A DNA stretch of 64,000 bases from Candidatus Latescibacterota bacterium (GCA_965116885.1 OZ220741.1:1024001-1088000); one strand, 5' to 3'. Shown: positions 20,842 to 44,086, counted from the first letter of the stretch. Notes: a model not told the origin generated them from the letters alone. Numbers and translations are program-made.

Positions 20842-20887
20842 TGACGCCTTTGGTAAAATATAATACATTCAAAAAATAAAGACCCTT

Positions 20888-20949
20888 CTGGATCGCGGCT
20901 TACACCCTGCCGCGATGACACACGGGACGGCACGGGGGCCGTCCCCTAC
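20888..20949. repeat. CTGGATCGCGG hairpin (20888-20919) plus GTAG REP (20924-20949)
   Basis: Matches the other copies. Confidence 0.85.
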
Positions 20950-20955
20950 AACACC

Positions 20956-23900: not shown

Positions 23901-24972
23901 GGCGGATCAAGCCGTGGGCGACCTCCTCTTTCAAACGGAAAAATACGCCCAGGCCATCACCGCGTATCGCCGCGTACCAGAACCCGCACGCAACGAAACC
24001 ATGGCCGCCCGCGAAGTCTTGAGCCTCTACCGCCTCCGGCGCATTGGCGAAGCCAACAAAGCCGCGGGCCAATTCAAAAAAACCTATAAAACGGCAACCG
24101 AATGGCTCGCCCGCTTCGAAGTCGAAAAAGGCAGATATCAACTCGCCGTCAGAAACCCAAAAAAAGCGCGACAAATTTTTGAAGACATCTCAAAAAAATA
24201 CGCCGCCACCGAAGCAGCGGCCGACGCGCGTTATTACATCATCCGCGCCCATCGCGACGAAGGACCCGACAAAGACGGCAACAACGAACCCTATCTCAAC
24301 GCACTCACCGCATTCATAAAAAATTATGCCGACAGCCCGCACTGGGTAGATGCCAACATCGAACTCGCCGAATTTTGGGAACGCAACGAAGAATACAACC
24401 TCTCTGCACGCGCATATCGCAACGCCATTGAAAAAGGCGTCGCCCAATCCAAAAAACCCGACATCCTCCACAAACTCGCAAAAAATTACAGCAACCTCAA
24501 CGCCTATGACCTCGCCATCAACTTTGCGCGCCAGCTCATCCGCGAATTTCCCCAACATCCGCTTGCTCTAAGCGCCCGCATCGACATCGGCACCATTTAC
24601 CTGCCCAACAAAGGCGACCACGAACAAGCCATAACAGAACTTCGCCCCCTGCTCAAACTCGTGACCGCAGAAGACGAAAAAGCCAACATCCAATACGCCA
24701 TCGCAGAAAACTATTTTGAAATGGGCGACTACACCAACGCACTCCGAGAATTTTTGATCTTGCGCTACAACCAGAACGCGGGGGTCATGTGGATCGCATC
24801 TGCACAAATGAAAGTCGCAGAATGCTATGCGGCACAGAATAATATTGAACAAGCCATACAAGAACTCGAAGCCATTAAAAGCCGCCACGGCGCAGCCAGC
24901 ATGTACGGCATTGGCGCGGAAAAGCGCATTCAACAGATAAAAGCACAGTCTGAATCAGGATTTACAAGATGA
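20956..24972 (+). CDS. Large periplasmic TPR protein (BamD/CpoB-like repeats)
   Basis: Signal peptide, many TPR units ending YPxS; acidic linker at about 22600-22960. Confidence 0.85.
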   Translation: MRNFYMILIIKTLPRGITTAFCILLAISSHLCAQGTQDENAHYELAQRIFNDGLYADAAREYKQFIINYPNSKRLPDAMLRVGQALARAEQYDRAREALQQFIDRYPTHIEVGRAMRARANALSQLGEHTRAGAVYRDVHAAYPASTNAPHDLLSAGENYHKGGALPEAGAAYRLLVEQYPKSPLFNEATFNLGRVLLEESRTEEALVQFRTLAEHPGSAKRKPDALLEMGNIALSRDNLSEAERIFATLRARYPATSAAQNSHLITGAWHAGKNDWASAEKTYNNALVKIPNNTRRQQALLGSANAKRKLGKSEGALQRYASFLRAYPKSPFHAHALIGYGRAFADLKNYRNALDAFRNLQEKYPDADVSIQAYGDIGNIWRALGTHQKALTAYQTYLTRIQSPIEKANARLQIAQICEDLHWYDLAAENYRTLINSPIAHCAAEGQIGLARVFEKTGEPALALREYRTYIKNHGDASHAETAETRIYLLTEFGTETDRDRIYIDLLADLPGIADDPHTQLKLGKTFYNRKYYNRAITHLETALTAQGLPLEAPDGWAEHTIASANDDTSSTDEKSFAPTSDDTLALAAEAARAAEAILALADGREQEDMRDGTGAVPYTSEDIPAEGPSDTSGTGEKSFAPTSNDTSNNDTPPDDDTPIPDESAFINAPAWASEAYYLLGNSYLKQARRATLENKSPDEWQNKGLATLKILVKIFPDNDHAENAALAVIHTETAHIQPDTLRAQTRLSAYRAYRKTHPNSPDLLLRIADAHFANTHIDSALSLYLQIEKKAGDPTLKEKVAYRIGLCQARQQQHVRAEETLKNFLFNYPQSNLTPHAQFQLGRILLDREFYASAAEAFSELLSASPTLALQRSARSLLAESYHRTGNYQRAIEIDESLITHNTTPQLLRRLAESYAHNNQRDKAITTYNMYLRKYPQAPDADSIAYTRAEHLTSRNRTSEALTAFREFSKKYPNSPLGTQADQAVGDLLFQTEKYAQAITAYRRVPEPARNETMAAREVLSLYRLRRIGEANKAAGQFKKTYKTATEWLARFEVEKGRYQLAVRNPKKARQIFEDISKKYAATEAAADARYYIIRAHRDEGPDKDGNNEPYLNALTAFIKNYADSPHWVDANIELAEFWERNEEYNLSARAYRNAIEKGVAQSKKPDILHKLAKNYSNLNAYDLAINFARQLIREFPQHPLALSARIDIGTIYLPNKGDHEQAITELRPLLKLVTAEDEKANIQYAIAENYFEMGDYTNALREFLILRYNQNAGVMWIASAQMKVAECYAAQNNIEQAIQELEAIKSRHGAASMYGIGAEKRIQQIKAQSESGFTR

Positions 24973-25124
24973 AAGGATGAACAGGATAAAGGCAAAAACC
25001 AGGATCAAAAGCAAAATCTCTGGATCGCGGCTCAACACCCTGCTGCGATGACGGGCGGGCACGGGGGCACCGCCCCTACATCCAATGACCGTATCCGCGT
25101 AGGGGACGGCCCCTGTGCCGTCCC
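24949..25124. repeat. Composite element: TCTGAATCAGGA purine-rich module, CTGGATC hairpin (25020-25052) and inverted REP doublet (25053-25079, 25099-25124)
   Basis: Direct sequence comparison. Confidence 0.85.
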
Positions 25125-25156
25125 GAACAACAGCCCCAACACTAAATATAATAACC

Positions 25157-26677
25157 ATGCCCACCGACCAAAAAGAAGCCCTCATCATCGTCGATCAGCC
25201 CACCGCACTGGGTCGGGACCTGCGTGCCGCGCTCGAAGAACTCGGCTGGCAAACCCTTGTGACCAACAGCGTGAGACCCGCCAGAAAACTGATCTCTGAA
25301 AGCCAGTTTGACCTGCTCATCCTGGACGAAACCACATTGCCCGAAGCCGACGTACAACTCGCCGACACATTATCTGAGCAACCTGAAAAAATCCCCATCT
25401 TCGCAATCACCACCCGGGAAGGGACCCAACTCCAAACAGCGCCCTCACTCGAACCCGATGCCCTGCTCTCCTATCCGTTCATCCCCGCAGAATTGCAGGA
25501 CGCCCTGACGCAAAAACGCACCCGACCCGACACCACCATCCTCGGCCGCTCAGGCGCCATACAACAAATCCGGGAAAGCGTGGCACAAATCGCGCCCACC
25601 CCCGTCAGCGTACTCATCACAGGAGAAAGCGGCTCCGGAAAAAACCTCATCGCCGAAGCCATCCACCGGCAAAGCGCGCGCAGCCGCGAACCCTTTCTCA
25701 TCATCAACTGCGGCGCAATCCCCGAAACCCTCCTCGAAAGCGAACTCTTCGGCCATGAAAAAGGTGCATTTACCGACGCGCGCACGCAGCGGTCTGGCAT
25801 CTTTGAAGCCGCCAACCGCGGCACCGTCTTCCTCGATGAAATCGGCGAAATGTCGCTCTCTGCACAGGTGCGCTTATTGCGCGTCCTCGACGCCAAAGAA
25901 GTCACCCGCCTGGGCAGCACCGCCCCAATAGCCGTTGACGTCCGCGTCATAGCCGCCACCAATCGCAACCTGCAACAAGCCGTTGCCGAAGGCAAATTCA
26001 GGCAAGACCTCTACCAGCGCCTTCGCGTCATCGAAATCGAAATGCCCCCATTGCGCGCCCACCCCGAGGACATCCCCCTCATCGCGCAAAACATCATCCA
26101 AAAACAAAGCGACGAACTCCGCATGCCCCCCATAGAGTTCGCACCCGACGCGATGAACGCACTGCAACAATACCACTGGCCGGGCAATGTCCGGGAACTC
26201 ATCAACCTCATCGAACGCCTCATGATCCTATCAAAAACCCGACACATATCCGCCCTGGACCTCGCGCAATACCTCGACACATCCCCGGTGACAGAACCAT
26301 CTTATCTCCCTGTCCTCGCGGGCAAAACACCTGCAGAATCCGATCGCGACCTCCTCTACTGGGCAATACTCGAAGTCGCCAAAGACGTCAAAGAACTCAA
26401 AGCCTATATCATGCAAAGCATGCAAACATCGCCCCCGCCATCTCTACCCGTCTCCATCTATGACACACCCATAGAAGACACAGAAATCACAGAAACCGCA
26501 GGTGCAGGTTTAGAACCTGAGCCTACCGAAGAAGACATACGCCCCTTGCGAGAACTCGAACGCGAAGCCATCGCCAATGCCCTGCGCGTAACCGGCGGGC
26601 ACCGCGAACGCACCGCAAAACTACTGGGCATGGCCGTACGCACGTTGTACAGGAAGATCGATCAATACGATTTGTAA
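25157..26677 (+). CDS. Sigma54-interacting transcriptional regulator with atypical receiver domain
   Basis: GESGSGKN, ESELFGHEKGAFTDA, WPGNVREL, HTH; receiver has SYPF in place of KPF. Confidence 0.9.
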   Translation: MPTDQKEALIIVDQPTALGRDLRAALEELGWQTLVTNSVRPARKLISESQFDLLILDETTLPEADVQLADTLSEQPEKIPIFAITTREGTQLQTAPSLEPDALLSYPFIPAELQDALTQKRTRPDTTILGRSGAIQQIRESVAQIAPTPVSVLITGESGSGKNLIAEAIHRQSARSREPFLIINCGAIPETLLESELFGHEKGAFTDARTQRSGIFEAANRGTVFLDEIGEMSLSAQVRLLRVLDAKEVTRLGSTAPIAVDVRVIAATNRNLQQAVAEGKFRQDLYQRLRVIEIEMPPLRAHPEDIPLIAQNIIQKQSDELRMPPIEFAPDAMNALQQYHWPGNVRELINLIERLMILSKTRHISALDLAQYLDTSPVTEPSYLPVLAGKTPAESDRDLLYWAILEVAKDVKELKAYIMQSMQTSPPPSLPVSIYDTPIEDTEITETAGAGLEPEPTEEDIRPLRELEREAIANALRVTGGHRERTAKLLGMAVRTLYRKIDQYDL

Positions 26678-26681
26678 TGAC

Positions 26682-26789
26682 GGGCAACCACAAGGGATTG
26701 CCCCTACATCTGACCGTGTACGCGTAGGGGACGGCCCCTGTGCCGTCCCGGATGACCACCTGCGGGCGACCACAGGGGGTCGCCCCTAC
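26682..26789. repeat. Three GTAG-type REPs in alternating orientation (BIME-like)
   Basis: 26682-26707, 26724-26749, 26764-26789. Confidence 0.85.
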
Positions 26790-26911
26790 AAAACCAATAA
26801 CCATTGATTCCCTATATCGCCTCCGATTTTCGGAACCATCTCATAGGGTCGTGGGTCTAATCGTCGAAATTCTTAATTTTTAATTTTTAATTCCAAAAAG
26901 GAGTTTCCGCC

Positions 26912-28381
<1,470 letters not shown>

Positions 28382-28392
28382 GGATCGAAATA

Positions 28393-29523
28393 ATGAGCAC
28401 CTCTGAAGCGCGGCTCATGATAGCCGCCAGCGAAACCGACGCCGACATGTACTACGCCACGCGCTTTCTCGCGCCCGACCCCTTCATCTTCTTTCAAATC
28501 GGCGCAAAAAAACACCTCCTCATGTCCGACCTGGAACGCGACCGCGCGCGCGATCAAGCCCAGGTCGATCACGTACTCTCCCTATCCGAATACCAGGAAA
28601 AAGCAAAAAAAAACGACACCGACGAAGAACCCTCTCAAATCGATGCCTTACACGAAGTACTACAAGAAAAAAATATCAACCGCCTGAACGTCCCCCGCGC
28701 CTTCTCCATTGCCACGGCAGACGACCTGCGCGAACGCGGCTACACAGTGGCATTTCCAGAAGGCGCGTATTGGCCCGAACGAGAAATTAAAACCCCTGAT
28801 GAAATCGAACACATCCGCGAAGTCCAGCAACACACCGAAGCCGCAATGGACGCCGCCATAACCCTCATCCGCAACTCGGAAATCCGCGGCGACCGCCTCT
28901 ACCACAACGGCGAACCCCTCACATCGGAACGCGTCAAACGCGAAATAAAATTTCTCCTCCTCGAACGCGACTGCACAGCCGGTCACACCATCGTCGCTGG
29001 CGGCGATCAAGCCTGTGACCCGCACAACGAAGGCACCGGCCCCCTGCACGCGCACCAATCCATCATCATCGACATCTTCCCCCGCTCAAACACCACCGGC
29101 TACTTCGCCGACCTCACCCGCACCGTCGTCAAAGGCGAACCCTCTGCCGACCTCCAGAACATCTACGACGCAGTACTCGCGGGACAAAACCTCGTCCTCG
29201 ACAGCATCCGCGCAGACGCAGACGGCCAGGCCATCCACCGAGCACTCACAGAACTCTTTGAAAACCGCAACTTTGAAACCGGCAACATAGACGGCCGCAT
29301 GCAGGGCTTCTTCCACGGCACGGGCCACGGCCTGGGCCTCGAAATCCACGAACCCCCGCGCATCGGCAAAACCTCGGGAACCCTTCGCGCAGGGCACATC
29401 GTCACCGTTGAACCGGGCCTCTATTATCCCGGTCGAGGCGCCGTACGCATCGAAGACCTCGCCGTCGTCACCGAAGACGGCCTCGAAAACCTGACGACCT
29501 ATCCGAAATTTCTCACCTTGTGA
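28393..29523 (+). CDS. Xaa-Pro aminopeptidase (M24B)
   Basis: DLTRT, HGTGHGLGLEIHE, TVEPGLY, RIED. Confidence 0.92.
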   Translation: MSTSEARLMIAASETDADMYYATRFLAPDPFIFFQIGAKKHLLMSDLERDRARDQAQVDHVLSLSEYQEKAKKNDTDEEPSQIDALHEVLQEKNINRLNVPRAFSIATADDLRERGYTVAFPEGAYWPEREIKTPDEIEHIREVQQHTEAAMDAAITLIRNSEIRGDRLYHNGEPLTSERVKREIKFLLLERDCTAGHTIVAGGDQACDPHNEGTGPLHAHQSIIIDIFPRSNTTGYFADLTRTVVKGEPSADLQNIYDAVLAGQNLVLDSIRADADGQAIHRALTELFENRNFETGNIDGRMQGFFHGTGHGLGLEIHEPPRIGKTSGTLRAGHIVTVEPGLYYPGRGAVRIEDLAVVTEDGLENLTTYPKFLTL

Positions 29524-29591
29524 TATAACGCAAAACGGGATTGATGCACAGAGGCAGGTTATAAATACAACCTATTCGTCTATATCGTCCT

Positions 29592-31322
29592 TCACGCCTC
29601 ATTCTCCACCCGAGCCGTAATAACATCAATCCCCTCATACTTCCGATGATGCACCGACGAAGCGTAATGCCGCAAAAGCCGGATCGAAAACTCGTGATCA
29701 TCCTCGGCATACGCATCCTCACCCAGATACGCGATCTGGTCTTCGATATTCTCGCCATCCGAAGCCGCCAAAAACTCTATTTCCGCTGTCCCTTCATCCC
29801 TGCGGATACTCAAAATCAGCCGCCGCGGTGTACTGGAAGACGCCTCTTCATCCTCCTTTATAAGACTCACCAGCATCTCCTCCCCGACCGAACGCAGGCG
29901 GTATTGACCACTCTCCGTCCAACCGTACTTCTCGGCAAACGCAACGAGAAACTCGTCAATCGCGGGCAATGCAGACAACTCCAGCGGCACTTGAATTTTT
30001 CTCCGCCGCGAACCGGTCAGTTCCACCAAAAGCGTCATGCCAATAACCGTCAGGCTCCCCACCGTAACCCCGCTATCGAGCAACTCGTGCACAAACCCGT
30101 CAAAAAATCCAGCAATACTCCCAGAAGAAAGCCCAACCATTATCGATACCGCGATGACGATACTCTTGCGATGATCAATCTTATCATCGAACGCCACCTT
30201 TGCCCCTTCCACGAAAAGCCCGCCAAATACGATGATATAGACAGCTGCCAGAACCGGACTCGGAATCGCAATGAGAAAAGCCCCCAACTTGGGCAAAAAT
30301 GCCACCCCGATCATAAACAACCCCATGTACACACCCACCATCCGCGCAGCCACGCCTGTAAGAGAGACATACGTTGCGGTAAGTGCCCAGGGCGTCGTGG
30401 CAGAGGGAATGCCCAGAAAGCCCACGATCAAATTGCCCACGGAGTAGGCATTGAGACCGCCTTGAACGACCCTGAAATCCTGTGCCTGTACCTCTCGGTG
30501 CGAAGCTCTTTGGATCACGCCAATATCCCCAACAGCCTTCACAAAAGTCACCAAACCGACAAAGATAAAAGCCGGCAGAAGTCCCCAAAATTCAACGCCA
30601 AAGGTCAAATCTAAACCTTCCCAGACGGGAACGGGAAAACCAATATAGGCAGCTTCGACCACACCGCTGTTATCGTACAACCCCAAAGGCACTGCGACAA
30701 TCAGACCCGCCAAAATGGTGATACCGACTATCCACAGCCGCCAGATCTGTGGCGCACGCAAAATTATCAGTACCCCAACAAACAAAGATATTGTCAGGGT
30801 CGCAATAACGCGATCAACGGGCAAATCCTGTGTCGATTTCACAACATCGTTAAACAGGAAGGGAGCTGCCGTAGCTGCGACCAACATCACAATTGTGCCA
30901 CTGACGGTTCGCGTAAATATTCGGCGCAACAGCGGAAGGTACATCGTGAGGACCAACTGAACGAGCGTCGAGACAACGGTCAAAATCGCCAGTAAGCCCG
31001 GTCCGCCTTTTTCTAAGGCAAGCGTAGAGATCGCAATAAAAGGAATATTGAAACCCGTCAAAATGAGAAGTCCAGTCCCAATTCGACCACGGAAAGCCTG
31101 AATAATTGACGTGAATCCGCACGTTATCAAGGCCATAAACACGGCCCACGGCAAATAAGCCCCGGTCTCGCCCGATGATCGGATGACCACAGTCGTAAAC
31201 ACCACGACCATGACGATATTTGGCGATGCCATCTGAACGGCAGAGAGTATGGCTACAGACCGGGGACATTTGTCCTCTGGTTCGTAGCGAATACCTTCGT
31301 TTATTTTTTTGACTTCGGCCAT
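29592..31322 (-). CDS. NCS2 (xanthine/uracil permease-like) membrane protein fused to a C-terminal RsbW/HATPase-like domain
   Basis: IRYEPEDK N-terminus, SIIQAF, PKLGAFLIAIPSPVL NCS2 features; about 140-aa soluble tail with an anti-sigma-kinase-like pattern. Confidence 0.75.
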   Translation of the reverse strand: MAEVKKINEGIRYEPEDKCPRSVAILSAVQMASPNIVMVVVFTTVVIRSSGETGAYLPWAVFMALITCGFTSIIQAFRGRIGTGLLILTGFNIPFIAISTLALEKGGPGLLAILTVVSTLVQLVLTMYLPLLRRIFTRTVSGTIVMLVAATAAPFLFNDVVKSTQDLPVDRVIATLTISLFVGVLIILRAPQIWRLWIVGITILAGLIVAVPLGLYDNSGVVEAAYIGFPVPVWEGLDLTFGVEFWGLLPAFIFVGLVTFVKAVGDIGVIQRASHREVQAQDFRVVQGGLNAYSVGNLIVGFLGIPSATTPWALTATYVSLTGVAARMVGVYMGLFMIGVAFLPKLGAFLIAIPSPVLAAVYIIVFGGLFVEGAKVAFDDKIDHRKSIVIAVSIMVGLSSGSIAGFFDGFVHELLDSGVTVGSLTVIGMTLLVELTGSRRRKIQVPLELSALPAIDEFLVAFAEKYGWTESGQYRLRSVGEEMLVSLIKEDEEASSSTPRRLILSIRRDEGTAEIEFLAASDGENIEDQIAYLGEDAYAEDDHEFSIRLLRHYASSVHHRKYEGIDVITARVENEA

Positions 31323-31431
31323 ATTTGAACTTGTGCGTTGCGTGAAAACGATTAAAACTGCTCATGGCTACGCTTCAAACGCAGCCATGAGCGATGGCGT
31401 TTTGTCGCCTGCTAAGGCTGTTATGAGCGGC

Positions 31432-33405
31432 TCAATCGGCCGGTTCGCCAAAGTAGCTCGAGCCGAAAATCAGGCCATCGTAGCGAATCACCCATGCATG
31501 TGCATCCAGTATTACGCCGGTTCGCACGTGGGGCCGCTGATAGTGAATCCAGTGCCCCTCCTCGGTCGCACGCACTATTTCTTTGCCAAGTTCAAAGCCG
31601 GTGCTGGGTATCTTGACAACTTCGATGTTGAGGCCCACCGCTCCGGGCGCAATGAGGAAGACAGCGACGAGGCCATTCTCGTCAATCAGAAACAAAGACC
31701 ATTGGCCTTCGATGCTCTCCCGGCTGCTGTAGTAGGCGACGGTAGCTTCCAGGCCCTCCTGTTTGTACTTATCTATCGCGGCCTGCACGTATGCCTTGGT
31801 GGCCGATTCGGGACTCTCCGGGGCAGGGTAATAGCCCGAAGCGAAAAGCAGCCCATCGCGCCGGATGGCATAGCCCACCTTGGGCACCTCCACCAGCGTC
31901 ACCGGATGCGGCCACAGGTATTCCACCCAAACGCCCACGCCTTCCTCCGCCTTGGCCAGCGCCTTACCCAGTTCGTAGCCATCGGAACCCACCACATTCT
32001 TGAGGTCCGTGCCGATCAGTCTGGGAATCAGCGGGTGGACGTGATAGATGTCGTCCGCGTCGGTGGCGAACAAATACCACTCGCCCTCAATGGAGGCCAC
32101 GCTGTTGTAGTATGCCTTCATCGCCTCCAGGCCGTCGCGCTCGTAGCGCTCAATGGCCCGTTGCACGTACGCCAAGGTGTACTCCCTCGGATCGGCACCC
32201 TGCCAGGGCGGCGGTCCCGCCTCGATGTCCGAGGTGTAGTAGCCCGATGCGAAGATCAGCCCGTCGTGCCGCACCACCCAGGCCGCCTTGTGTTCTTCCC
32301 GTAGCGTTACCGGGTTCGGCCACAGGTATTCCACCCAATGGCCTTCCTCCGTAGCCTTGGCTATCTCCTTCCCCAGTTCGTAACCGTCCGAACCCACCAC
32401 GTCCTTGATGTCCGTGCCGATCAGGTGCGGGAATATCGGATGCGCCAGATAGAGATCATCGGCCCCGATGAGGAACAGGTAAAATTGCCCATCCACGCTT
32501 TCCCGGCTGTTGTAATACGCGATGGTCGCTTCCAGGCCCTCTCGGTCGTAGTGCGCGATCGCCTTGGCGATGTAATTGTGGGTGGCGTCGGCCAGATTTT
32601 CCCGCAGCGTGAAATGCCCGGACATGAAAACGAGGTCGTCGTGCCGAATGAGGAAGCTGCGCTTGGGGCCTAACTGTCGGGTTATGGAATGGATATCTTG
32701 ATGATCCACCCAGAGACCTTCCGTAGGCACTTCTTCCATCGGGGGGAATGGTGCGCCAGTGGGCGCGGGCGCACCGACGCGAATGGATAAACCACTTGCC
32801 AGTATGATGCTTTGCTGCGGGTCAATGATAGTCATGTGCCGCTCGCCTTCGATGCTCTCCTGGCTGCTGTAGTATGCGAGCGTGGCTTCTCGGCCATCGC
32901 GCTGGTAACGCTCAATGCCCTTCATCACAAAGGCCATGGTCAGCGCGTCGTCTTCATCGGCGGCCATCGGCGGAGAACTCAGAACCTGCGCCCTGCCACC
33001 TATCGGCAAAGACAACATCACCTCAGCACCCGCATTCAACGGGATGCTCGACCACGAACCTACCTCACTCCCATCCTGCACAGCACGCGCCTGATAATAC
33101 CCACTGCCGCCAGTAATCTCTATCTGCGCCTGACCCTCATCATCCGTCATACCCGACCAGTCATAGCTCGCAGACTGACCCGCAACAGAACGCGAAAACT
33201 CGACCATCACACCACTGACTGGCCCCTCATCCTCGTGCACCGTCGCCACCACGACCAGAGAATGCCCGGCCACTGCCAATTTACTCAACGGACGACCAAC
33301 CTGCTCCTCTGCCACCTGAGACTGCGTCCCACGATCCCCACCACAACTCCACAGCCCGCCAGCCACCAGCGCGAGCACGAACACGCGACAAACATCTCGA
33401 AACAT
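31432..33405 (-). CDS. Lipoprotein with N-terminal Ig-like domain and four single Cache-like domains
   Basis: Lipobox LWSC; four repeats of AIxxYxxxGLEA..YLF..HP..GxWVEYxWP..RHDGLIFASGYY. Confidence 0.8.
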   Translation of the reverse strand: MFRDVCRVFVLALVAGGLWSCGGDRGTQSQVAEEQVGRPLSKLAVAGHSLVVVATVHEDEGPVSGVMVEFSRSVAGQSASYDWSGMTDDEGQAQIEITGGSGYYQARAVQDGSEVGSWSSIPLNAGAEVMLSLPIGGRAQVLSSPPMAADEDDALTMAFVMKGIERYQRDGREATLAYYSSQESIEGERHMTIIDPQQSIILASGLSIRVGAPAPTGAPFPPMEEVPTEGLWVDHQDIHSITRQLGPKRSFLIRHDDLVFMSGHFTLRENLADATHNYIAKAIAHYDREGLEATIAYYNSRESVDGQFYLFLIGADDLYLAHPIFPHLIGTDIKDVVGSDGYELGKEIAKATEEGHWVEYLWPNPVTLREEHKAAWVVRHDGLIFASGYYTSDIEAGPPPWQGADPREYTLAYVQRAIERYERDGLEAMKAYYNSVASIEGEWYLFATDADDIYHVHPLIPRLIGTDLKNVVGSDGYELGKALAKAEEGVGVWVEYLWPHPVTLVEVPKVGYAIRRDGLLFASGYYPAPESPESATKAYVQAAIDKYKQEGLEATVAYYSSRESIEGQWSLFLIDENGLVAVFLIAPGAVGLNIEVVKIPSTGFELGKEIVRATEEGHWIHYQRPHVRTGVILDAHAWVIRYDGLIFGSSYFGEPAD

Positions 33406-33482
33406 AACAATCTCCCTTACAAAATGGTTTTCTCTGCCACAACTGCGAACTGCAATAAAATACTTTAGCTTTTATGAGCGGC

Positions 33483-35093
33483 TCAATCGGCCGGTTCGCC
33501 AAAGTAGCTCGAGCCGAAAATCAGGCCATCGTAGCGAATCACCCATGCATGTGCATCCAGGATTACGCCGGTTCTCACGTTGGGCCGCTGGTAGTTAATC
33601 CAGTGCCCGGCCTCGGTCGCACGCACTATTTCTTTGCCAAGTTCAAAGCCGGTGCTGGGTACCTTAATGTTCTCGATGTTGAGACCCACCGCTCCGGGCG
33701 CAACAAGGAAGACAGCGATGCGCCCATTCTCGTCAATCAGGAACAGGGACGATTGGCCTTCAATGCTCTCCCGGCTGCTGTAGTAGGCGACGGTGGCTTC
33801 CAGGCCCTCCTGTTTGTACTTGTCTATCGCGGCCTGCACGTATGCCTTGGTGGCCGATTCGGGACTCTCCGGGGCAGGGTAATAGCCCGAAGCGAAAAGC
33901 AGCCCATCGTGCCGAATGGCGTAGCCCACCTTGGGAACCTCCGCCAGTGTCACCGGATGCGGCCACATGTATTCCACCCAAACACCCACGCCGTCCCCCG
34001 CCTTGACCAGCGCCTTGCCCAGTTCGTAGCCATCGGAACCCACCACATTCTTGAGGTCCGTGCCGATCAGTCTGGGAATCAGCGGGTGGACGTGATAGAT
34101 GTCGTCCGCGTCGGTGGCGAACAAATACCACTCGCCCTCAATGGAGGCCACGCTGTTGTAGTATGCCTTCATCGCCTCCAGGCCATCGCTCTTGTAGCGA
34201 TCAATGGCCCGTTGCACGTACGCCACGGTGTACTCCCTCGGATCGGCACCCTGCCAGGGTGGCTGTCCCGCTTCGGTGTCCGAGGTGTAGTAGCCCGATG
34301 CGAAGATCAGTCCGTCGTGCCGCACCACCCAGGCCGCCTTTTGTTCTTCCCGTAGTGTTACCGGATTCGGCCACAGGTATTCCACCCAGTGACCTTCCTC
34401 CGTAGCCTTGGCTATCTCCTTCCCCAGTTCGTAACCGTCCGAACCCACCACGTCCTTGATGTCCGTGCCGATCAGGTGCGGGAAAATGGGATGTGCCAGA
34501 TAGAGATCATCGGCCCCGATGAGGAACAAATAAAAATGCCCATCCACGCTTTCCCGGCTGTTGTAATACGCGACGGTCGCTTCCAGGCCCTCTCGGTCGT
34601 AGTGCGCGACCGCTTTGGCAATGTAATTGCGGGTGACGTCGGCCAGATTTTCTTGCAACGTGAAATGCCCGGCCATGAAAACGAGATCATCGTGCCGAAT
34701 GCGGAAGCTGCGCATGGGGCCTAACTGTCGGGTTCTGGGATGAATACTTTGATGATCCATCCAGATGCCTTCCGGAGTGACTGGACCGAATCCGGGCGCG
34801 GGCGCACCGACGTGAACGGGTAAACCACTTGCCAGTATGACGCTTTGCTGCGGGTCAATGATAAGCATGAACCGATCGCCTTCGATGCTCTCCTGGCTGC
34901 TGTAGTATGCGAGCGTGGCTTCCCGCCCATCGCGGTCGTAGCGCTCAATGCCCTTCATAACATAAGCTTTTGTGAGCGCATCGTCCTCATCGGCGGCCAT
35001 CGCAGAAGAACTCGTAACCTGTGCATTACCACCAACCCACAGTGCGCCAGCCACCAATGCCAGTACGAACATACGACAAATATCTCGAAACAT
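33483..35093 (-). CDS. Secreted protein with four single Cache-like domains (tandem paralog)
   Basis: Near-identical to the C-terminal part of 31432-33405; signal peptide, no lipobox Cys. Confidence 0.8.
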   Translation of the reverse strand: MFRDICRMFVLALVAGALWVGGNAQVTSSSAMAADEDDALTKAYVMKGIERYDRDGREATLAYYSSQESIEGDRFMLIIDPQQSVILASGLPVHVGAPAPGFGPVTPEGIWMDHQSIHPRTRQLGPMRSFRIRHDDLVFMAGHFTLQENLADVTRNYIAKAVAHYDREGLEATVAYYNSRESVDGHFYLFLIGADDLYLAHPIFPHLIGTDIKDVVGSDGYELGKEIAKATEEGHWVEYLWPNPVTLREEQKAAWVVRHDGLIFASGYYTSDTEAGQPPWQGADPREYTVAYVQRAIDRYKSDGLEAMKAYYNSVASIEGEWYLFATDADDIYHVHPLIPRLIGTDLKNVVGSDGYELGKALVKAGDGVGVWVEYMWPHPVTLAEVPKVGYAIRHDGLLFASGYYPAPESPESATKAYVQAAIDKYKQEGLEATVAYYSSRESIEGQSSLFLIDENGRIAVFLVAPGAVGLNIENIKVPSTGFELGKEIVRATEAGHWINYQRPNVRTGVILDAHAWVIRYDGLIFGSSYFGEPAD

Positions 35094-35190
35094 AACAACC
35101 TCCCTGTTAAAATGGTCCTTTCTGTGACAACTACAAAAAAATAAACTACTTTTCGCGAAATATAAAGCCTTTTTTTGCGGATCACACTTC

Positions 35191-36111
35191 TCACGCCCTC
35201 GGATGAAACGTTCGGTGCACCTCCTTCAAATACTCCCGATCGACATGGGTATAAATCTGCGTCGTTGAAATATCCGCATGCCCCAGCATCTCTTGCACCG
35301 CCCGCAAATCTGCGCCCCCCTCCAGCAAATGCGTCGCAAAAGAATGCCGCAACGTATGCGGACTCACCTTCTTCTCCAACCCCGCCAGCACCACGTATTG
35401 CCTCAGCAACTTCCACACGCCCATCCGCGAAAATGGACCACCGCGAAAATTCAAAAACACCTCGGACCCCGTACGCGGCTTGACCAACTCCGGACGCACC
35501 GCATCCAAATACTCAGTCACCCACTCAATACCCTCTGACCCAATCGGCACCACCCGCTCGCGCCCGCCCTTGCCCAGCACCCGAACCACCTCCACATCAA
35601 ACAGCAAATCCACCAGCGACAACCCGATCAACTCCGACACCCGCAGCCCCGCCCCGTAAAGCATCTCTATAAGCGCGCGATCCCGCAACCCCAGGGGCGT
35701 CTCCACATCCGGCGCCAGCATCAACCGCTCAACCTCGTAAATATTCAGCACCGACGGCAACTTTCGCCCCAATTTGGGCGGCTTCAAATGCTCCGTCGGA
35801 TCCCGGCGCGCCAGACCCTCCCCTATCAAAAACCTGTGAAACATCCGCACCGCCGTCAAATTGCGCGCCACACTCGACGCCTCCAGCCCCATCTCCGCAA
35901 GCAAATCCAACAGCGCGGACACCTCCGCCTGAGAAATCGCATCCGGCGCATCAATCCCCAAATCCGTCAACAGCGTCAAATACCGGCTCAAATCGCGTTG
36001 ATATGCACGCGCCGTATTATCCGATAACCCGCGCTCCAGCGTCACAGAATCGAGAAACCGCTGCAACGCGCGTTCCAGTTCTGGGGCAATTATCATCTGA
36101 TCTATAGACAT
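35191..36111 (-). CDS. xerD: Site-specific tyrosine recombinase XerD
   Basis: RDRA, GLRVSEL, SPHTLRHSFATHLLEGGADLRAVQEMLGHADISTTQIY, HPRA C-terminus. Confidence 0.93.
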   Translation of the reverse strand: MSIDQMIIAPELERALQRFLDSVTLERGLSDNTARAYQRDLSRYLTLLTDLGIDAPDAISQAEVSALLDLLAEMGLEASSVARNLTAVRMFHRFLIGEGLARRDPTEHLKPPKLGRKLPSVLNIYEVERLMLAPDVETPLGLRDRALIEMLYGAGLRVSELIGLSLVDLLFDVEVVRVLGKGGRERVVPIGSEGIEWVTEYLDAVRPELVKPRTGSEVFLNFRGGPFSRMGVWKLLRQYVVLAGLEKKVSPHTLRHSFATHLLEGGADLRAVQEMLGHADISTTQIYTHVDREYLKEVHRTFHPRA

Positions 36112-36133
36112 GATTTCTCACCATCGAAAAATC

Positions 36134-36157
36134 GGGCGAGGCATGCCTCGCCCCTAC
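36134..36157 (-). repeat. GTAG-type REP supplying the uvrC stop codon
   Basis: GTAGGGGCGAGGCATGCCTCGCCC, identical to 16439-16462. Confidence 0.85.
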
Positions 36158-38001
36158 ATTTTCTTCAACCCCTCACAAATCACCTCAGCCAACCGCATCC
36201 CCACTCCCTCGACCTCTGCCACCTCCGCCACCTCTGCCTCCCGGATCCGCTTTACCGAACCGAAATGCTTCAACAGCGCGATGCGCCGCGACGGACCCAC
36301 CCCGGGAATCTCATCCAGCTCCGACGTCAGCGTCCGCTTATCGCGCAACTTGCGGTGGTATTCAATCGCAAACCGGTGCGACTCATCGCGCAACATCTGC
36401 AACAACTTCAACGACGACGACGTTTTGGGAATATTCTGCGGATCGGACAAACCCGGCACAAACACCTCCTCCAGCCGCTTTGCCAGCCCAATCACCGGCT
36501 GATCTTCAATCCCCAAACCCCGCAACGCCTCAACCACGCTCGAAAGCTGCCCCTTGCCCCCATCGACCAACAGCAAATCGGGAAACGACTTCCCCTCCTC
36601 CATCAACCGCTTAAACCGCCGCGTCACCACCTGCTGCATCATCGCAAAATCATTGGGCCCCTCCAACCCCGTAATTTTAAAATGCCTGTACTCGCGCTTC
36701 CGCGCCCTCCCATCCACAAAACACACCAGCGACGCCACCGGATCCGACCCTTGAATATTTGAAATATCCACCGCCTCGATCCACCGCGGCGGCTTCTCCA
36801 GGTGCAAATCGCGCTGAAGCGCCTGCACTGCTGCCGGTGCTTGCGACCTGCGATTCTCGCGCTTCAAACGCCGCTCTGCCAACAACAGCCGCGCATTATT
36901 CTCCGCCATCTTCACCAACCGGAACTTATCCCCCCGCTGGGGCACGCGCATCTCAACCCCGCCCTCTGAACGCTCTGTAAGCCAATCGAGCACCGTCTCC
37001 CGATCCTCAATATCACACGGCAGACACACCTCTCGCGGCACAAAAGTAGCCGTCGCGTAAAACAACTGCACAAATGCCGAAACCACCTCCTCTTCAGACG
37101 CATCCAGCACCCCCCCGATAAAATAATTCTGCCGCCCGATCAACCGTCCATCGCGCACCTCCATCACCACCCCGCAAGCCTCGTCATCTTCCCGCGCAAT
37201 CGCAATCGCATCCCAATCCGTCAAAGCATTGGACACCACCTTTTGCCGACTCGCGGCCTGTTCCAGGGCCCGAATGCGATCCCGATAAATCGCCGCCTCC
37301 TCGTACCTCAGCGCCTCTGCCGCCCGCTTCATCCGCTCTTTAAGCGTCACCATAACCTGCGTATGCCGCCCCGTCAAAAACAACACCGCTTCATCCACGA
37401 TCTTCTGATACGCCCCTGCCACAATCAACCCCTCGCACGGCCCGTCACACCGCTTGATCTCGTAATCCAGACACAGCCGCACATTGGCCTTTGGCAAATC
37501 GTAATCACAACTTCGGATCCGAAACAACCGGTGCATCGTCTCCACCATCCGCCGCATCGCCTTCACATCTGTATAAGGACCCAAATAGCGCGACCCATCC
37601 TTCACCACATCGCGCGTCACCACAACGCGGGGAAACGCCTCTTTTGTAATGCGGATATACGGATACTTCTTGTCGTCTTTCAAACTGATATTGTAGCGCG
37701 GCTTGTGTGCCTTGATCAAATTCGCTTCTAAAATCAACGCCTCCAACTCCGTATCCGTAACAATATATTCCAAATCGCGCACATTGCGAACCAGCGCCCG
37801 AAACTGTCGCCGCCCATCATGGGCATTGGGACGAAAATACTGCTGCACCCGGCTGCGCAACACCTTTGCCTTGCCGATATAAATAATCTGCCCCTCGTCG
37901 CCCTTCATCATGTACACACCAGGCTCTCTGGGCATCAATGCAACAATACCGTCGATGTGCTCGCGAACAGTGTTGCGGTCGCGTTTCGATTCATCGATCA
38001 A
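36154..38001 (-). CDS. uvrC: Excinuclease ABC subunit C
   Basis: PGVY..IYIGKA, EANLIK, PDLLLVDGGKGQL, HhH tail. Confidence 0.96.
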   Translation of the reverse strand: MIDESKRDRNTVREHIDGIVALMPREPGVYMMKGDEGQIIYIGKAKVLRSRVQQYFRPNAHDGRRQFRALVRNVRDLEYIVTDTELEALILEANLIKAHKPRYNISLKDDKKYPYIRITKEAFPRVVVTRDVVKDGSRYLGPYTDVKAMRRMVETMHRLFRIRSCDYDLPKANVRLCLDYEIKRCDGPCEGLIVAGAYQKIVDEAVLFLTGRHTQVMVTLKERMKRAAEALRYEEAAIYRDRIRALEQAASRQKVVSNALTDWDAIAIAREDDEACGVVMEVRDGRLIGRQNYFIGGVLDASEEEVVSAFVQLFYATATFVPREVCLPCDIEDRETVLDWLTERSEGGVEMRVPQRGDKFRLVKMAENNARLLLAERRLKRENRRSQAPAAVQALQRDLHLEKPPRWIEAVDISNIQGSDPVASLVCFVDGRARKREYRHFKITGLEGPNDFAMMQQVVTRRFKRLMEEGKSFPDLLLVDGGKGQLSSVVEALRGLGIEDQPVIGLAKRLEEVFVPGLSDPQNIPKTSSSLKLLQMLRDESHRFAIEYHRKLRDKRTLTSELDEIPGVGPSRRIALLKHFGSVKRIREAEVAEVAEVEGVGMRLAEVICEGLKKM

Positions 38002-38025
38002 AGGGTTATCCTTTCAACATCGCAC

Positions 38026-38060
38026 GGGCGGGCACGGGGGGACGGCCCCTGTGCCGTCCC
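38026..38060. repeat. Internally deleted REP doublet
   Basis: gggcgggcacggggg joined to gacggcccctgtgccgtccc, the outer ends of the 25053-25124 doublet. Confidence 0.7.
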
Positions 38061-38069
38061 GAACATCAA

Positions 38070-38564
38070 TCACAAATCCACAATCTCCACATCCATCGCA
38101 TTCAAATCCAGAATCCCCACCGTCTCCCTGCCCGTCGTCCACCCACACGCCTCCCCGGGATTAATCACCAGCGTATCGCCTCTTCGCACATCGATCTCGT
38201 GCGTATGCCCGTAAAAAATCACATCATAAGCACCGCTCTGTGATAGGGCATCCACCTCATCTGGCTCGTGCAGCATCAAAATGCGCTTGCCCTCCCACTC
38301 GTGTACATAAGGTGGGCGGTGAATCGGTCCCAAGCTCTCAAAAAGTGCCCGCAAACCGAACTTCTCCCCATCGTTATTCCCAAAAACCCCCACAAAAGGC
38401 ACCGTCAAATCCCCCATCCAGCGCGCATTAAACGGCGCGATATAATCGCCCCCGTGCAGCACCAGCCCCACGTCCCGCGCATTAAAAAGCTCAACCGCTT
38501 TCTCAATTGCGTGTTTATTGTCATGTGTATCCGTAATCAAACCGACAAGATGTGATTTTCCCAT
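38070..38564 (-). CDS. YfcE/MJ0936-family metallophosphoesterase
   Basis: DTHDN, HGGD, GNND, GHTH, NPG. Confidence 0.9.
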   Translation of the reverse strand: MGKSHLVGLITDTHDNKHAIEKAVELFNARDVGLVLHGGDYIAPFNARWMGDLTVPFVGVFGNNDGEKFGLRALFESLGPIHRPPYVHEWEGKRILMLHEPDEVDALSQSGAYDVIFYGHTHEIDVRRGDTLVINPGEACGWTTGRETVGILDLNAMDVEIVDL

Positions 38565-39014
38565 AGTCAGACTCCCGTTATCAGATCAATTCTTCTGGAG
38601 GAACTCGATTTTCATAATTATATGCATATAATTTCCCAAAAAAAACAAAAAATCTTATCTTATACAGATGTAGATAAAGTAGTAAATGGAAAAAGTAAAG
38701 TTAGAAGTGTGCATAATTCATTTGTTGTAGTACAGCGAAGTATAAAGTTTTTTTCATGCCTTCGGCGACCTACTTTTTTTCAGCAGCAAAAAAAAGTAGG
38801 CGAGCGGGGTACAACTGACCGTTTCTCAGGTCAGTTCAAAAATGCCGCTCTCAAACGCCGAGGGGCTGGCACAGCGCAAAACGTTTTTGGGGTAATACGC
38901 CATACTGTGGCCTTCAGATTACAATGCCATAAAGATGTCTGCTGCGAATCGGACTTGCGCGCTGTGCCCGATGGCTCATTTGATTTATGAGTTAAATACA
39001 GGAGCAGACCCCTT

Positions 39015-39893
39015 ATGCCCATACTAAAAATCGGCCTCCCCTCCGGAAGCCTTCAGGAATCTACGCTCACCCTGTTTGCCAAAGCCGGTTATCGCATCCA
39101 CGCCAGCCACCGGTCTTACACGCCCGTCATCGACGACCCCGAACTCGAGGGCTTATTTTTGCGCGCCCAGGAAATCGCGCACTACGTCGAACGCGGCGTC
39201 CTCGACATTGGCCTCACCGGCATCGACTGGATCCGAGAAAACGAAGCCGACATCGTCGAAATCGCCGAATTTGCCTACAGCAAAACCTCATCGCAACCCG
39301 CGCGCTGGATCATCGCAGTCCCCGAAGACTCGGACATTCAGACCGTACAGGACCTGCAGGGCAAGCGCGTCGCCACCGAACTCGTCACAGCCACGCGCAA
39401 CCACCTCAAAAACCACGGCATAACCGCCGAAGTCGAATACTCCTGGGGATCCACCGAAGCCAAAGTACGCGTGCCCGGCCTCGTCGATGCCATCGCCGAA
39501 CTCACCGAAACTGGATCCTCTCTGCGCGCCAACAACCTGCGCGTCATAGACACCATGTTTGAAACCACGCCCAGACTCATCGCCAACAAAACAGCGTGGA
39601 ACAATGCGTGGAAACGCGAAAAAGCGCAACACATTGCCACCTTGCTCATCGGTGCGTTCAACGCCGAAGACAAAGTCGGCCTCAAAATGAACGTACGCCG
39701 CGCAGACCTCGCGCAAATCGTCAAAAATCTACCCGCGCTCAACAACCCCACCATCGCCAACTTACTCGACGAAAACTGGGTTGCAATTGAAGTCATCGTA
39801 GATGAGCGCGTCGTGCGCGACCTCATCCCAAAACTCAAAAAAGCAGGTGCCGAAGGCATCATCGAATATCCCTTGAATAAAGTGATCTATTAA
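39015..39893 (+). CDS. hisG: ATP phosphoribosyltransferase (long form)
   Basis: GLPSGSL, DIGLTG, ETGSSLRANNL, C-terminal regulatory domain. Confidence 0.96.
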   Translation: MPILKIGLPSGSLQESTLTLFAKAGYRIHASHRSYTPVIDDPELEGLFLRAQEIAHYVERGVLDIGLTGIDWIRENEADIVEIAEFAYSKTSSQPARWIIAVPEDSDIQTVQDLQGKRVATELVTATRNHLKNHGITAEVEYSWGSTEAKVRVPGLVDAIAELTETGSSLRANNLRVIDTMFETTPRLIANKTAWNNAWKREKAQHIATLLIGAFNAEDKVGLKMNVRRADLAQIVKNLPALNNPTIANLLDENWVAIEVIVDERVVRDLIPKLKKAGAEGIIEYPLNKVIY

Positions 39894-39946
39894 CCCCTGA
39901 TTTTGACTCTTATCCTGTACATCCTTTCATCCTGCACATCCTGATC
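39893..39946 (-). repeat. Purine-rich GATCAGGAT repeat in reverse orientation filling the hisG-hisD gap
   Basis: Reverse complement reads gatcaggatgtgcaggatgaaaggatgtacaggataag. Confidence 0.7.
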
Positions 39947-41251
39947 ATGATCGAACTCATCACATACAACCGCGACAAAACACCCCCAAAACTCGACGCC
40001 ATCCTCTCGCGCAGCCCTGACTTCTCCGCCGAACAGGAAGCCACCGTGCGGGAAATCGTCACCACCGTAAAAAAACAGGGGGATCGCGCCCTGCTCGCGT
40101 ACACCAAAAAATACGACGGCATCGACATAATCGACATCCGCGTGCCCGAAACCGAAATCAAAGCCGCCCATCGCAACGCCGACCCCAAATTCATCGAAAT
40201 CATAGACGCAGCCGCGACAAACATCCGCAAATTTCACGAAACCCAGCGACAAACATCCTACTTCATCGAAGACGGCGACGGCGTCATCCTCGGCAAACGC
40301 ATCCTCCCCATCGAACGCGTTGCCCTGCTCATCCCCGGTGCAAGTGCCCCCCTATTCTCCACCCTGCTCATGGCCGCCATCCCCGCGCAAATCGCAGGCG
40401 TCCCGCACCTCTGCATCGCCACGCCCCCGCAGCCAAACGGCGCCATACACCCCGCCGTCCTCGCCACAGCCCATCACCTGGGAATATGTGAAATCTACAA
40501 AGTCTTCGGTGCTCAAGCCATTGCCGCACTCGCCTATGGCACCGACACCATACCCCGCGTTGACAAACTCGTCGGACCCGGCAACCCATACGTCCAAATC
40601 GCAAAAAAACTCGTCTTCGGAACCGTTGACATCGACATGATCGCCGGACCCAGCGAAATCGTCGTCCTCGCCGACCACACCGCAAACGCCAAACACATCG
40701 CCGCCGACCTCCTCTCACAGGCCGAACACGGCAGCGGCTTTGAAGCCGCAGTCTGCATCACGCCCTCTGCCGACCTCGCAACGCAAATCGCCGACGAAAT
40801 CGCCCATCAAGCCGCCGACCTGACACATAGAAAAGCCATACAAAACGCACTCGACCGCTTTGGCGCAATCGTCGTCGTCCGCGACCTCGCCGAAGGCATT
40901 GACCTCGCCAATCGCATGGCACCCGAACACCTCGAACTCATCGTCGCCGACCCCTGGACACATCTCCAATCGGTTCGCCATGCCGGTGCCGTATTCCTCG
41001 GCGCGGCATCATCCGAACCCGTGGGCGACTACTACGCGGGCACCAACCACATCCTGCCCACAGCCGGCGCCGCCCGATTCGCGTCATCTGTTGGCGTTGA
41101 CACCTTCACCAAAACCATCAGCATCTTACAATATACCGACCAACGCCTGCAAAAAACCGCGGGCCACATCATCAGCATGGCCGAAACCGAGGGCCTCGAC
41201 GCCCATGCCAATGCCATCAGACAAAGGATAAAGGCGGACCTACCCCCCTAA
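39947..41251 (+). CDS. hisD: Histidinol dehydrogenase
   Basis: GPGNPYV, IDMIAGPSE, QAEH, APEHL, GDYYAGTNHILPT. Confidence 0.97.
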   Translation: MIELITYNRDKTPPKLDAILSRSPDFSAEQEATVREIVTTVKKQGDRALLAYTKKYDGIDIIDIRVPETEIKAAHRNADPKFIEIIDAAATNIRKFHETQRQTSYFIEDGDGVILGKRILPIERVALLIPGASAPLFSTLLMAAIPAQIAGVPHLCIATPPQPNGAIHPAVLATAHHLGICEIYKVFGAQAIAALAYGTDTIPRVDKLVGPGNPYVQIAKKLVFGTVDIDMIAGPSEIVVLADHTANAKHIAADLLSQAEHGSGFEAAVCITPSADLATQIADEIAHQAADLTHRKAIQNALDRFGAIVVVRDLAEGIDLANRMAPEHLELIVADPWTHLQSVRHAGAVFLGAASSEPVGDYYAGTNHILPTAGAARFASSVGVDTFTKTISILQYTDQRLQKTAGHIISMAETEGLDAHANAIRQRIKADLPP

Positions 41252-41323
41252 CCCCCCTTCCTGCGAGGAAGGGGGGAACCAGGTCTCCCCTCCCCGTCTC
41301 GGGGAGGGGCCAGGGGAGGGGTT
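41239..41323. repeat. C-rich/G-rich double-hairpin intergenic repeat overlapping the hisD end
   Basis: cccttcct-gcg-aggaaggg and cccctcccc-gtctc-ggggagggg stems inside an outer C-rich/G-rich inverted repeat. Confidence 0.65.
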
Positions 41324-41333
41324 CCAAACCACA

Positions 41334-42413: not shown

Positions 42414-42543
42414 AAGGATGGACAGGATAAAATCAAAACCAGATGAAAAACAAAGACAAAACCAGATGAAAAACAAAGACAAAACCAGATGAAAAACAAA
42501 GACAAAACCTTCTGGATTGCGGCTAACACCCTGCCGCAATGAC
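42390..42543. repeat. Composite element with three perfect 23-nt tandem units (42435-42503) and a CTGGATTGCGG hairpin
   Basis: aaaaccagatgaaaaacaaagac x3. Confidence 0.85.
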
Positions 42544-42602
42544 GGCACTAATATCCTTGTTTTGCTGACTGCTGATAGCTTGTTTTCACGAAAGACAAAC
42601 CC

Positions 42603-44024: not shown

Positions 44025-44047
44025 GAGACGGCCAGTTGTACCCCGTT
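44013..44047. repeat. 35-nt hairpin element (also at 16495-16529 and, inverted, at 38803-38837)
   Basis: GAACTGGCCTGAGAGACGGCCAGTTGTACCCCGTT. Confidence 0.8.
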
Positions 44048-44086
44048 CCGTCGATTCGTTGATTCGTTTTAAAAAAGGCACATTCC

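Follow-up and report, generated by a model that had tools for sequence, protein, structure and literature searches.

In the TRAP (DctPQM/SiaPQM) and TTT (TctABC) systems, and in the proposed TAXI-GltS system, a ligand-binding protein that is extracytoplasmic and often lipid-anchored is tied genetically to an ATP-independent elevator-type carrier; until 2025 TRAP and TTT were the only secondary carriers known to work with a soluble binding protein (PMC12344293). The authors of the TAXI-GltS work tie the use of binding proteins to elevator-type carriers, whose mechanism, they suggest, permits such a coupling, and they expect further classes, which are wanted to test the idea (PMC12344293). We report here on three neighbouring genes, Cache-A, Cache-B and a permease, carried by the minus strand of a 64,000-nucleotide stretch of DNA from a Candidatus Latescibacterota bacterium (GCA_965116885.1 OZ220741.1:1024001-1088000; the whole stretch is hereafter called the window). 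These genes are best explained as a self-contained module associating an extracytoplasmic poly-Cache binding protein with a divergent permease of NCS2 fold, the Cache gene being duplicated at this locus. The whole analysis is computational, and was carried out on sequence and on predicted structure.

Besides the genetic coupling of a binding protein to a carrier, the Cache-permease pair has in common with TRAP, TTT and TAXI-GltS the carboxylate type of the ligands (predicted here) and the multiplied paralogues of the binding protein (PMC12344293). The differences are nevertheless numerous: the binding protein consists here of four tandem Cache (PAS-like) domains and not of the two-lobed DctP, TAXI or TctC fold; the carrier has the NCS2/SLC23 fold and not that of DctM, TctA or GltS; the module has no small Q/TctB-like subunit but has a pseudo-kinase tail; its genes mostly diverge across genomes instead of being translationally coupled, and no fusion protein was found. 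The features of the locus are as follows, positions being counted from the first letter of the window and lengths given in amino acids (aa) for each open reading frame (ORF).

33483..35093, minus strand: Cache-A (P0003), 536 aa; ORF call, Pfam sCache_2, and matches to sCache_2 sensor domains of the PDB.
34644..34991, minus strand: repeat 1 of Cache-A, residues 35-150; repeat alignment.
34248..34643, minus strand: repeat 2 of Cache-A, residues 151-282; HMMER alignment to 5g4y.
33867..34247, minus strand: repeat 3 of Cache-A, residues 283-409; HMMER alignment to 4k08.
33486..33866, minus strand: repeat 4 of Cache-A, residues 410-536; repeat alignment.
31432..33405, minus strand: Cache-B (P0002), 657 aa; ORF call, Pfam sCache_2, and identity to Cache-A.
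31360..31392, minus strand: hairpin of 15 bp followed by a U-rich run; folding compared with shuffles.
29592..31322, minus strand: permease (P0001), 576 aa; ORF call and Pfam PF00860.
30015..31322, minus strand: membrane domain of the permease, residues 1-436; PF00860, AlphaFold model, Foldseek, and profile alignment to UapA.
29592..30014, minus strand: cytoplasmic tail of the permease, residues 437-576 and stop codon; tail model and Foldseek.

The three ORFs thus lie on the minus strand where a previous sequence-only reading of the window had placed them; the close spacing that it gave for Cache-B and the permease also stands, but not its value of 110 nucleotides (nt), since 109 nt (31323..31431) are measured. 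The Cache and permease components each have more than 1000 homologues at E <= 0.001 in public data, and are therefore real genes rather than chance ORFs. The nearest relatives of all three proteins belong to metagenome-assembled genomes (MAGs) labelled either Gemmatimonadetes, in one source, or Candidatus Latescibacterota.

Pfam recognises both Cache proteins as sCache_2 (PF17200), with 67.6 and 61.1 bits for a cut-off of 25 (E-values of 1.6e-18 for Cache-A and 1.5e-16 for Cache-B), over two stretches in each protein. The PDB sequences matched by the Cache protein, 4k08, 4exo, 2qhk and 5g4y, are sCache_2 sensor domains of chemoreceptors. When Cache-A is cut in four segments, four homologous units appear, whose identity to repeat 2 is 55% for repeat 3, 45% for repeat 4 and 30% for repeat 1; the four Cache-like domains proposed at first are thus recovered by alignment, though only repeats 2 and 3 are canonical. 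At the N-terminus each protein has a hydrophobic signal, and neither the sequence nor the Pfam matches above curated cut-offs reveal any further membrane segment or output domain, so that the description of exported proteins made of Cache domains only holds as well. The name “cytochrome c” given by one source to a homologue, together with a preprint on sCache_heme, raised the idea of a heme-binding Cache; it was ruled out, no CXXCH being found in either protein.

In PscD, Tyr90, His103, Tyr143 and Lys156 donate hydrogen bonds to the carboxylate of the ligand, itself sandwiched by Trp92 and Trp145, and Tyr90, His103 and Lys156 constitute the general carboxylate triad of single-Cache domains (PMC5062169). 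Aligned on 5g4y with HMMER, repeat 2 of Cache-A displays Y188, F190, H201, Y239, W241 and K252 at the six positions of the propionate/acetate pocket of PscD, the sole substitution being Phe for Trp92; repeat 3 displays the same pattern (Y323, F325, H336, Y375, W377 and K388) when aligned with HMMER on Adeh_3718 (4k08). These twelve residues are invariant in 113 homologues. By contrast, repeats 1 and 4 have none of the pocket residues in the alignment, and repeat 1 is additionally deleted in the pocket loop. As repeats 2 and 3 keep the pocket and repeats 1 and 4 lose it, each Cache protein would contain two pocket-competent and two degenerate modules. Compared with the sCache_2 sensors of the C2/C3-carboxylate chemoreceptors PscD, McpP and Adeh_3718, repeats 2 and 3 share the Tyr/His/Lys triad, the second Tyr and the aromatic sandwich; the difference is that four domains, two of them devoid of pocket, are found here in a secreted protein that has no transmembrane signalling part. 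On the basis of these residues, the predicted class of ligand is that of carboxylates.

Cache-A and Cache-B are 87% identical in protein (531 aa) and 91% in DNA (1570 nt), and thus result from a recent tandem duplication. Their start distinguishes them: Cache-A has a signal peptide without Cys, and Cache-B a lipobox-like LWSC and about 120 additional N-terminal residues. The upstream regions of the two copies are near-identical, ribosome-binding site included, and the copies diverge mainly at their N-terminus. A signal or anchor sequence opens every homologue inspected, and a loose lipobox pattern fits 34 of the 113.

The Pfam family Xan_ur_permease (PF00860) covers residues 25-399 of the permease with an E-value of 4e-31 (108.5 bits for a cut-off of 27). 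The AlphaFold model built on 116 homologues (pLDDT 73) is matched by Foldseek to UapA (E 4e-10), SVCT1 and UraA, with TM-scores of 0.72-0.80 on the target (0.80 for UraA), then to SLC26 and SLC4 carriers; as modelled, the permease has the full 14-helix NCS2/SLC23 fold of the UraA/UapA type. NCS2 carriers are elevators. Their TM10 signature (transmembrane helix 10), shared by the NCS2/NAT proteins, reads [Q/E/P]-N-x-G-x-x-x-x-T-[R/K/G], of which only the terminal T-G (T322, G323) is retained here. In the profile alignment to UapA, the CECIGD of TM8 faces vKavGD, which places Lys262 at Glu356, the substrate-binding Glu of UapA; in TM10, FAQNN faces PWA(L/A)T (PWALT, 311-315), which places x-Thr315 at Gln408-Asn409. 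Lys262, Asp266, Pro311, Thr315 and Tyr318 are invariant in 116 sequences, and Trp312 is found in at least 90% of them; these residues fall in the stretches aligned with the TM8 and TM10 substrate-site motifs of UapA. Since Glu is replaced by Lys262 and Gln-Asn by x-Thr315, the residues of nucleobase recognition are gone, and an equally conserved set has replaced them. A basic residue instead of an acidic one would suit an anion.

The permease thus keeps, with the NCS2/NAT carriers UraA, UapA, XanQ and SVCT1, the same fold, a clear homology and the T-G end of the TM10 signature, but departs from them by Lys262 for the Glu of TM8, by PWALTAT for Q/E-N-x-G, by a cytoplasmic domain of 140 residues and by an obligate Cache neighbour. 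A wider family of tail-bearing permeases (27 sequences, 30-48% identity) shows K, E, R, Q, N or others at the TM8 position, and Q/E-N-x-G is absent from all 27. This variation looks like a diversification of specificity, and the membrane domain seems to be a functional carrier. In a feature search of the Atlas, the whole permease finds clusters of about 567 aa among Chloroflexota and Pseudomonadota.

Is it then a plain xanthine/uracil-type nucleobase permease, lying beside Cache genes that have nothing to do with it? The Pfam assignment would suit this reading, one source calls a homologue a xanthine permease (XanP), and an XDH-family molybdoenzyme is encoded nearby in 8 of the related loci described below. 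We hold it nevertheless for very improbable: the Glu of TM8 and the Gln/Glu-Asn of TM10 have given way to an invariant Lys and to x-Thr, the scores stay far under the NCBIfam cut-offs for pbuX (TIGR03173, 137.3 bits for 414.15 required) and ncs2 (TIGR00801, 125.5 bits for 291.8), and the pairing with Cache genes, as will be seen, is not due to chance.

The tail of the permease is less readily assigned by sequence. Pfam gives no hit for the tail of the window itself, the cut-off of HATPase_c_2 (PF13581) not being reached, and a DUF7611 match (E 0.27) was discarded as noise; the tail profile meets PDB sequences only at chance level, the best being GAL4 at E 0.045. A phmmer search of 1.84 billion representatives yielded 477 hits at E <= 0.001, and each of the 150 listed is either a fragment or a match at the C-terminal end of a protein of about 565-595 aa; among these listed matches, the domain seems specific to this family of permeases. 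HATPase_c_2 appears weakly in the tails of 6 of 24 relatives (best E 0.0066), and every other Pfam family is hit by one relative at most. In the feature search of the Atlas, 16 of the 30 hits of the tail belong to the HATPase_c_2-bearing set (score 0.93), which was taken only as a lead. With the full-length permease model, Foldseek retrieves UsfX (8ih8_D) at rank 37 (E 1e-4), the sole non-transporter among the matches listed. These three indications agree, and the AlphaFold model of the tail alone (121 sequences, pLDDT 82, pTM 0.78) goes the same way: it has 20 Foldseek matches at E <= 0.001, headed by UsfX (8ih8, 8jzt), RsbW (6m37) and SpoIIAB (1l0o, 1th8, 1tid). For 8ih8, 8jzt, 6m37, 1l0o and 1th8 the E-values range from 7.5e-8 to 2.7e-6, and the TM-scores of the leading matches on the target range from 0.66 to 0.79 (6m37 reaching 0.79); the RsbW domain of Rv1364c, SiaB and catalytic domains of histidine kinases rank lower. 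A GHKL, anti-sigma-kinase fold of the RsbW/SpoIIAB/UsfX type is therefore well supported for the tail, on the strength of these models.

The ATP site of GHKL proteins is made of the Asn of the N-box and of two glycine boxes, G1 (DxGxG) and G2. In the tail, the long helix 470-493, which we take to be the N-box helix of the GHKL fold, has no Asn and shows instead the invariant pair E481-E482; the strand 512-521 is followed by D-G-E-N-I-E-D, with an invariant Asn525, and not by DxGxG; residues 522-552 include two isolated Gly and no GxG, and the loop 532-548, modelled with low confidence, has one Gly. Judged from the sequence and from the elements of the model, the ATP machinery is absent. The sequence-only reading had pictured a divergent NCS2 permease without Q/E-N-x-G, ending in a degenerate RsbW-like region without N-box Asn or glycine boxes. 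It was right on both counts, PWALT standing at the FAQNN of UapA, and the Foldseek searches on tail and full-length models converge to the GHKL fold that it had supposed.

The tail is strongly conserved. E481, E482, N525, E527, S546, H552, H559, K561, G564 and D566 are invariant and R548 is conserved too, so that some binding function is probably kept. The tail has the same alpha/beta fold and the same size as RsbW, SpoIIAB and UsfX (HATPase_c_2), family that some of its relatives hit weakly; it differs from them in that it lacks the N-box Asn, DxGxG and the glycine-rich lid, adjoins no STAS or sigma gene, and is joined to a carrier of 14 helices, where the others are free soluble dimers. The SLC26/SulP carriers with their C-terminal STAS domain offer a parallel, as they belong to the same superfamily of 7+7 inverted repeats and likewise borrowed their tail from the partner-switching toolkit. 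There, however, the tail has the STAS/SpoIIAA antagonist fold, whereas the fold found here is that of the opposite partner, the RsbW/SpoIIAB kinase, and no sequence relationship is seen between the tails. The relationship between SLC26, SLC4 and SLC23 and the regulatory STAS domain are stated in PMC6497670. By analogy, we read the tail of the permease as a regulatory or dimerising module.

The linkage of the two components was analysed by a scan with the permease alignment, which covered one genome per species for 185,579 species and gave 212 relatives, the best 80 loci being examined. Four of these are labelled Latescibacterota and 76 are from Chloroflexota MAGs, mostly Dehalococcoidia; every match runs through the tail. 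A poly-Cache gene, searched by tblastn with Cache-A, lies directly beside the permease in 79 of the 80 loci, so that the neighbourhood first noticed in the window recurs elsewhere; the sole exception is L042, whose upstream sequence stops after 49 nt. After clustering of the 1301 ORFs of the 80 loci, the permease and Cache genes alone are widely shared, and the next neighbour is found in 9 loci. The permease tree has 77 rows, namely the window and 76 loci (four were excluded, where the permease is not in one near-full-length frame or where no Cache match is found). Along these rows the Cache gene is divergent and upstream in 61 cases, convergent and downstream in 11, co-oriented and upstream in 5; at least 5 changes of arrangement occurred on the tree, to be compared with a mean of 15.3 after shuffling. 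Where both ORFs were called (69 loci), the gap between the two genes has a median of 159 nt. The linkage was thus kept while the surrounding synteny and the relative orientation changed, as is characteristic of a functional pair.

The partner itself is variable. Some loci have two to three Cache genes, and giant poly-Cache genes of 1147-1150 aa are found next to the permease at 6084..9536 in L046 and 6424..9867 in L077; at 2728..7830, L027 encodes, again next to the permease, a poly-Cache protein of 1700 aa with six significant sCache_2 stretches. Starts with a signal, an anchor or a lipobox, and Cache genes multiplied or very long, are features typical of binding proteins. The three loci with giant Cache genes are all from Dehalococcoidia MAGs, and the number of repeats in the partner is highly variable.

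A tight linkage could also be found for two genes that are co-regulated and mechanistically independent, the permease being a stand-alone carrier of something other than nucleobases and the Cache protein a buffer, a scavenger or the sensor of another receptor, both belonging to the pathway of a shared substrate. A mostly divergent arrangement around a common intergenic region fits a co-regulation without complex, no fused form was found (a weak null result), and NCS2 carriers normally need no binding protein. On the other hand a linkage of 79 in 80 through at least 5 rearrangements is, in our judgement and not by measurement, tighter than is usual for co-regulated genes of a pathway, and no catabolic enzyme is consistently present to define such a pathway. 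We thus consider this explanation as decidedly unlikely.

A few observations on the related loci may be added. Two or three paralogous tail-bearing permeases lie within 10 kb in L005, L039, L042, L046 and L077. In L003, L004 and L069 the permease frame is split or truncated in the MAG records, which could reflect pseudogenisation or else a fault of assembly or a frameshift error. The gene of a sodium:solute symporter (SSF) is near the permease in 9 loci (L032, L039, L040, L041, L047, L048 and three others), directly downstream of it in at least six, and is confined to sub-lineages. Genes of an XDH-family molybdopterin enzyme are likewise confined to sub-lineages; they occur in 8 loci (L014, L015, L023, L030, L033, L051, L059 and L078) and adjoin the permease in 7. 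Other occasional neighbours are formate-tetrahydrofolate ligase (7 loci) and enoyl-CoA hydratase. These four neighbours do not define a substrate; the recurrence of the SSF and XDH-family genes may hint at a substrate or a pathway. On plasmids, tblastn found no match for the tail, and for Cache-A a single unrelated Cache protein with 33% identity.

The most serious rival makes the locus a transceptor or a membrane anti-sigma system: the Cache protein would sense an extracellular ligand and signal through the permease-like domain, whose change of conformation would lead the tail to bind or release a cytoplasmic regulator such as a sigma factor or a STAS protein, transport being secondary or absent. 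The sequence-only reading had taken this line, with soluble Cache receptors delivering a ligand or a signal to a transceptor whose tail binds a partner. Cache domains are overwhelmingly signalling inputs, and their known context is signalling. The best structural matches of the tail, UsfX, RsbW and SpoIIAB, were for several of them solved with a sigma factor or an antagonist; the strong conservation of the tail argues for a specific binding function; and, among the matches listed, the tail is confined to the C-terminus of this permease family or to fragments. A class of stand-alone Cache proteins also exists (bioRxiv 10.64898/2026.02.01.703092). The membrane domain, however, retains a complete carrier fold with an invariant site, whose residues diversify across the wider family, as is the case in transporters. 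The weak point lies mostly in the missing partner: the genes of classical partner-switching systems are usually clustered, and over the 80 loci the pair is accompanied by no conserved third gene, whether for a sigma factor, for a STAS protein or for anything else. We regard this model as unlikely, and all the same as a serious competitor.

We favour instead, as the best reading and with a probability that we would put a little below an even chance, a binding-protein-assisted secondary transporter whose substrate bears a carboxylate and whose pseudo-kinase tail is regulatory; TRAP, TTT and TAXI-GltS provide the precedent. The Cache protein, exported or tethered to the membrane, would take hold of a small solute of this kind with the pockets kept by repeats 2 and 3, and would then dock on the permease, the contact being made perhaps by the degenerate repeats 1 and 4; the permease, as an elevator-type secondary carrier with Lys in place of the nucleobase-binding Glu, would import the solute; and the tail would not phosphorylate but regulate and/or dimerise, like STAS in SLC26/SulP. 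The delivery of a ligand for uptake fits several features at least as well as signalling does: the predicted site is invariant in the close family and varied in the wider one, and Cache paralogues are multiplied beside one permease. A fuller version, in which a single two-gene module both imports and reports a small organic acid, with Cache sensor domains in place of a Venus-flytrap fold for binding, the NCS2 elevator for transport and the tail coupling the flux to a cytoplasmic partner, is possible though we incline against it.

Several points weigh against binding-protein-assisted uptake. Most pairs (61 of 77) are divergently transcribed and do not make one operon, in a few loci some permease paralogues have no directly adjoining Cache gene, and the search for longer proteins fusing Cache and permease gave none, a null result that is weak. 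The sampling is narrow: the 80 loci considered are the best ones among 212 relatives, and 76 of them come from Chloroflexota. The signalling context of Cache domains, already mentioned, counts here too, and no Cache domain serving as the binding protein of a transporter appeared in the open literature searched. The structures nearest to the tail model are partner-switching anti-sigma factors, which points towards signalling. Finally the carboxylate triad indicates a class of ligand and not the ligand, because it is common to sCache_2 domains generally (PMC5062169).

Every part of the module comes from a known superfamily; what is new is their combination, with the mechanism that it implies. 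Outside subscription-only papers, the literature searched describes neither a Cache-NCS2 pairing nor an NCS2-HATPase fusion, and the locus looks like an undescribed module for the uptake or the sensing of a small organic acid. If the uptake reading is true, the Cache-NCS2 pair would be one of the further classes expected by the authors of the TAXI-GltS work, with both components of unrelated folds; it would also give Cache domains their first known role in transport (none being met in the literature searched), and the NCS2/SLC23 superfamily a cytoplasmic regulatory domain mirroring the STAS of SLC26. Such a route may be quantitatively important for the uptake of small organic acids in uncultured Chloroflexota and in bacteria labelled Latescibacterota. 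Its value lies in a sharply defined two-protein system that can be tested.

As for local signals of expression, the ATG of Cache-A comes 5 nt after a strong Shine-Dalgarno-like AGGGAGG; both Cache genes have a strong ribosome-binding site, and none is obvious on the permease. The hairpin between the stop of Cache-B and the start of the permease folds at -35.2 kcal/mol, against -24.5 for shuffles (z -3.4), is retained in the related loci L001 and L003, and is terminator- or attenuator-like. We count these signals, ribosome-binding sites and hairpin, among the details that favour binding-protein-assisted uptake. Rfam gives no match at E <= 1 between positions 29000 and 36500 of the window; on six related loci it gives rRNA and tRNAs only, and thus no riboswitch clue to the ligand.

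The genes around the module are housekeeping ones. Upstream on the minus strand come a Xer-type tyrosine recombinase (35191..36111) and then uvrC (36154..38001); from the permease side converge genes for an M24 peptidase, an HtrA-type protease and a sigma-54 activator. Homologues of the Xer-type recombinase occupy the same position in L001-L004, and are also found in L062 and L063. A strong, monotonic strand asymmetry makes the plus strand C- and A-rich throughout 1..64000, with genes on both strands: GC skew is negative in all 2-kb bins (-0.05 to -0.39), the cumulative GC skew drops steadily to -7.5, and AT skew is zero or positive in every 2-kb bin of the window. Further away, on the plus strand (42603..44024), an ORF of 473 aa with a weak match to MR_MLE_C (enolase-C-terminal-like; E 1.3e-5, under the cut-off) sits amid histidine-biosynthesis genes, namely hisG, hisD, an aminotransferase gene (putative hisC) and IGPD/hisB.

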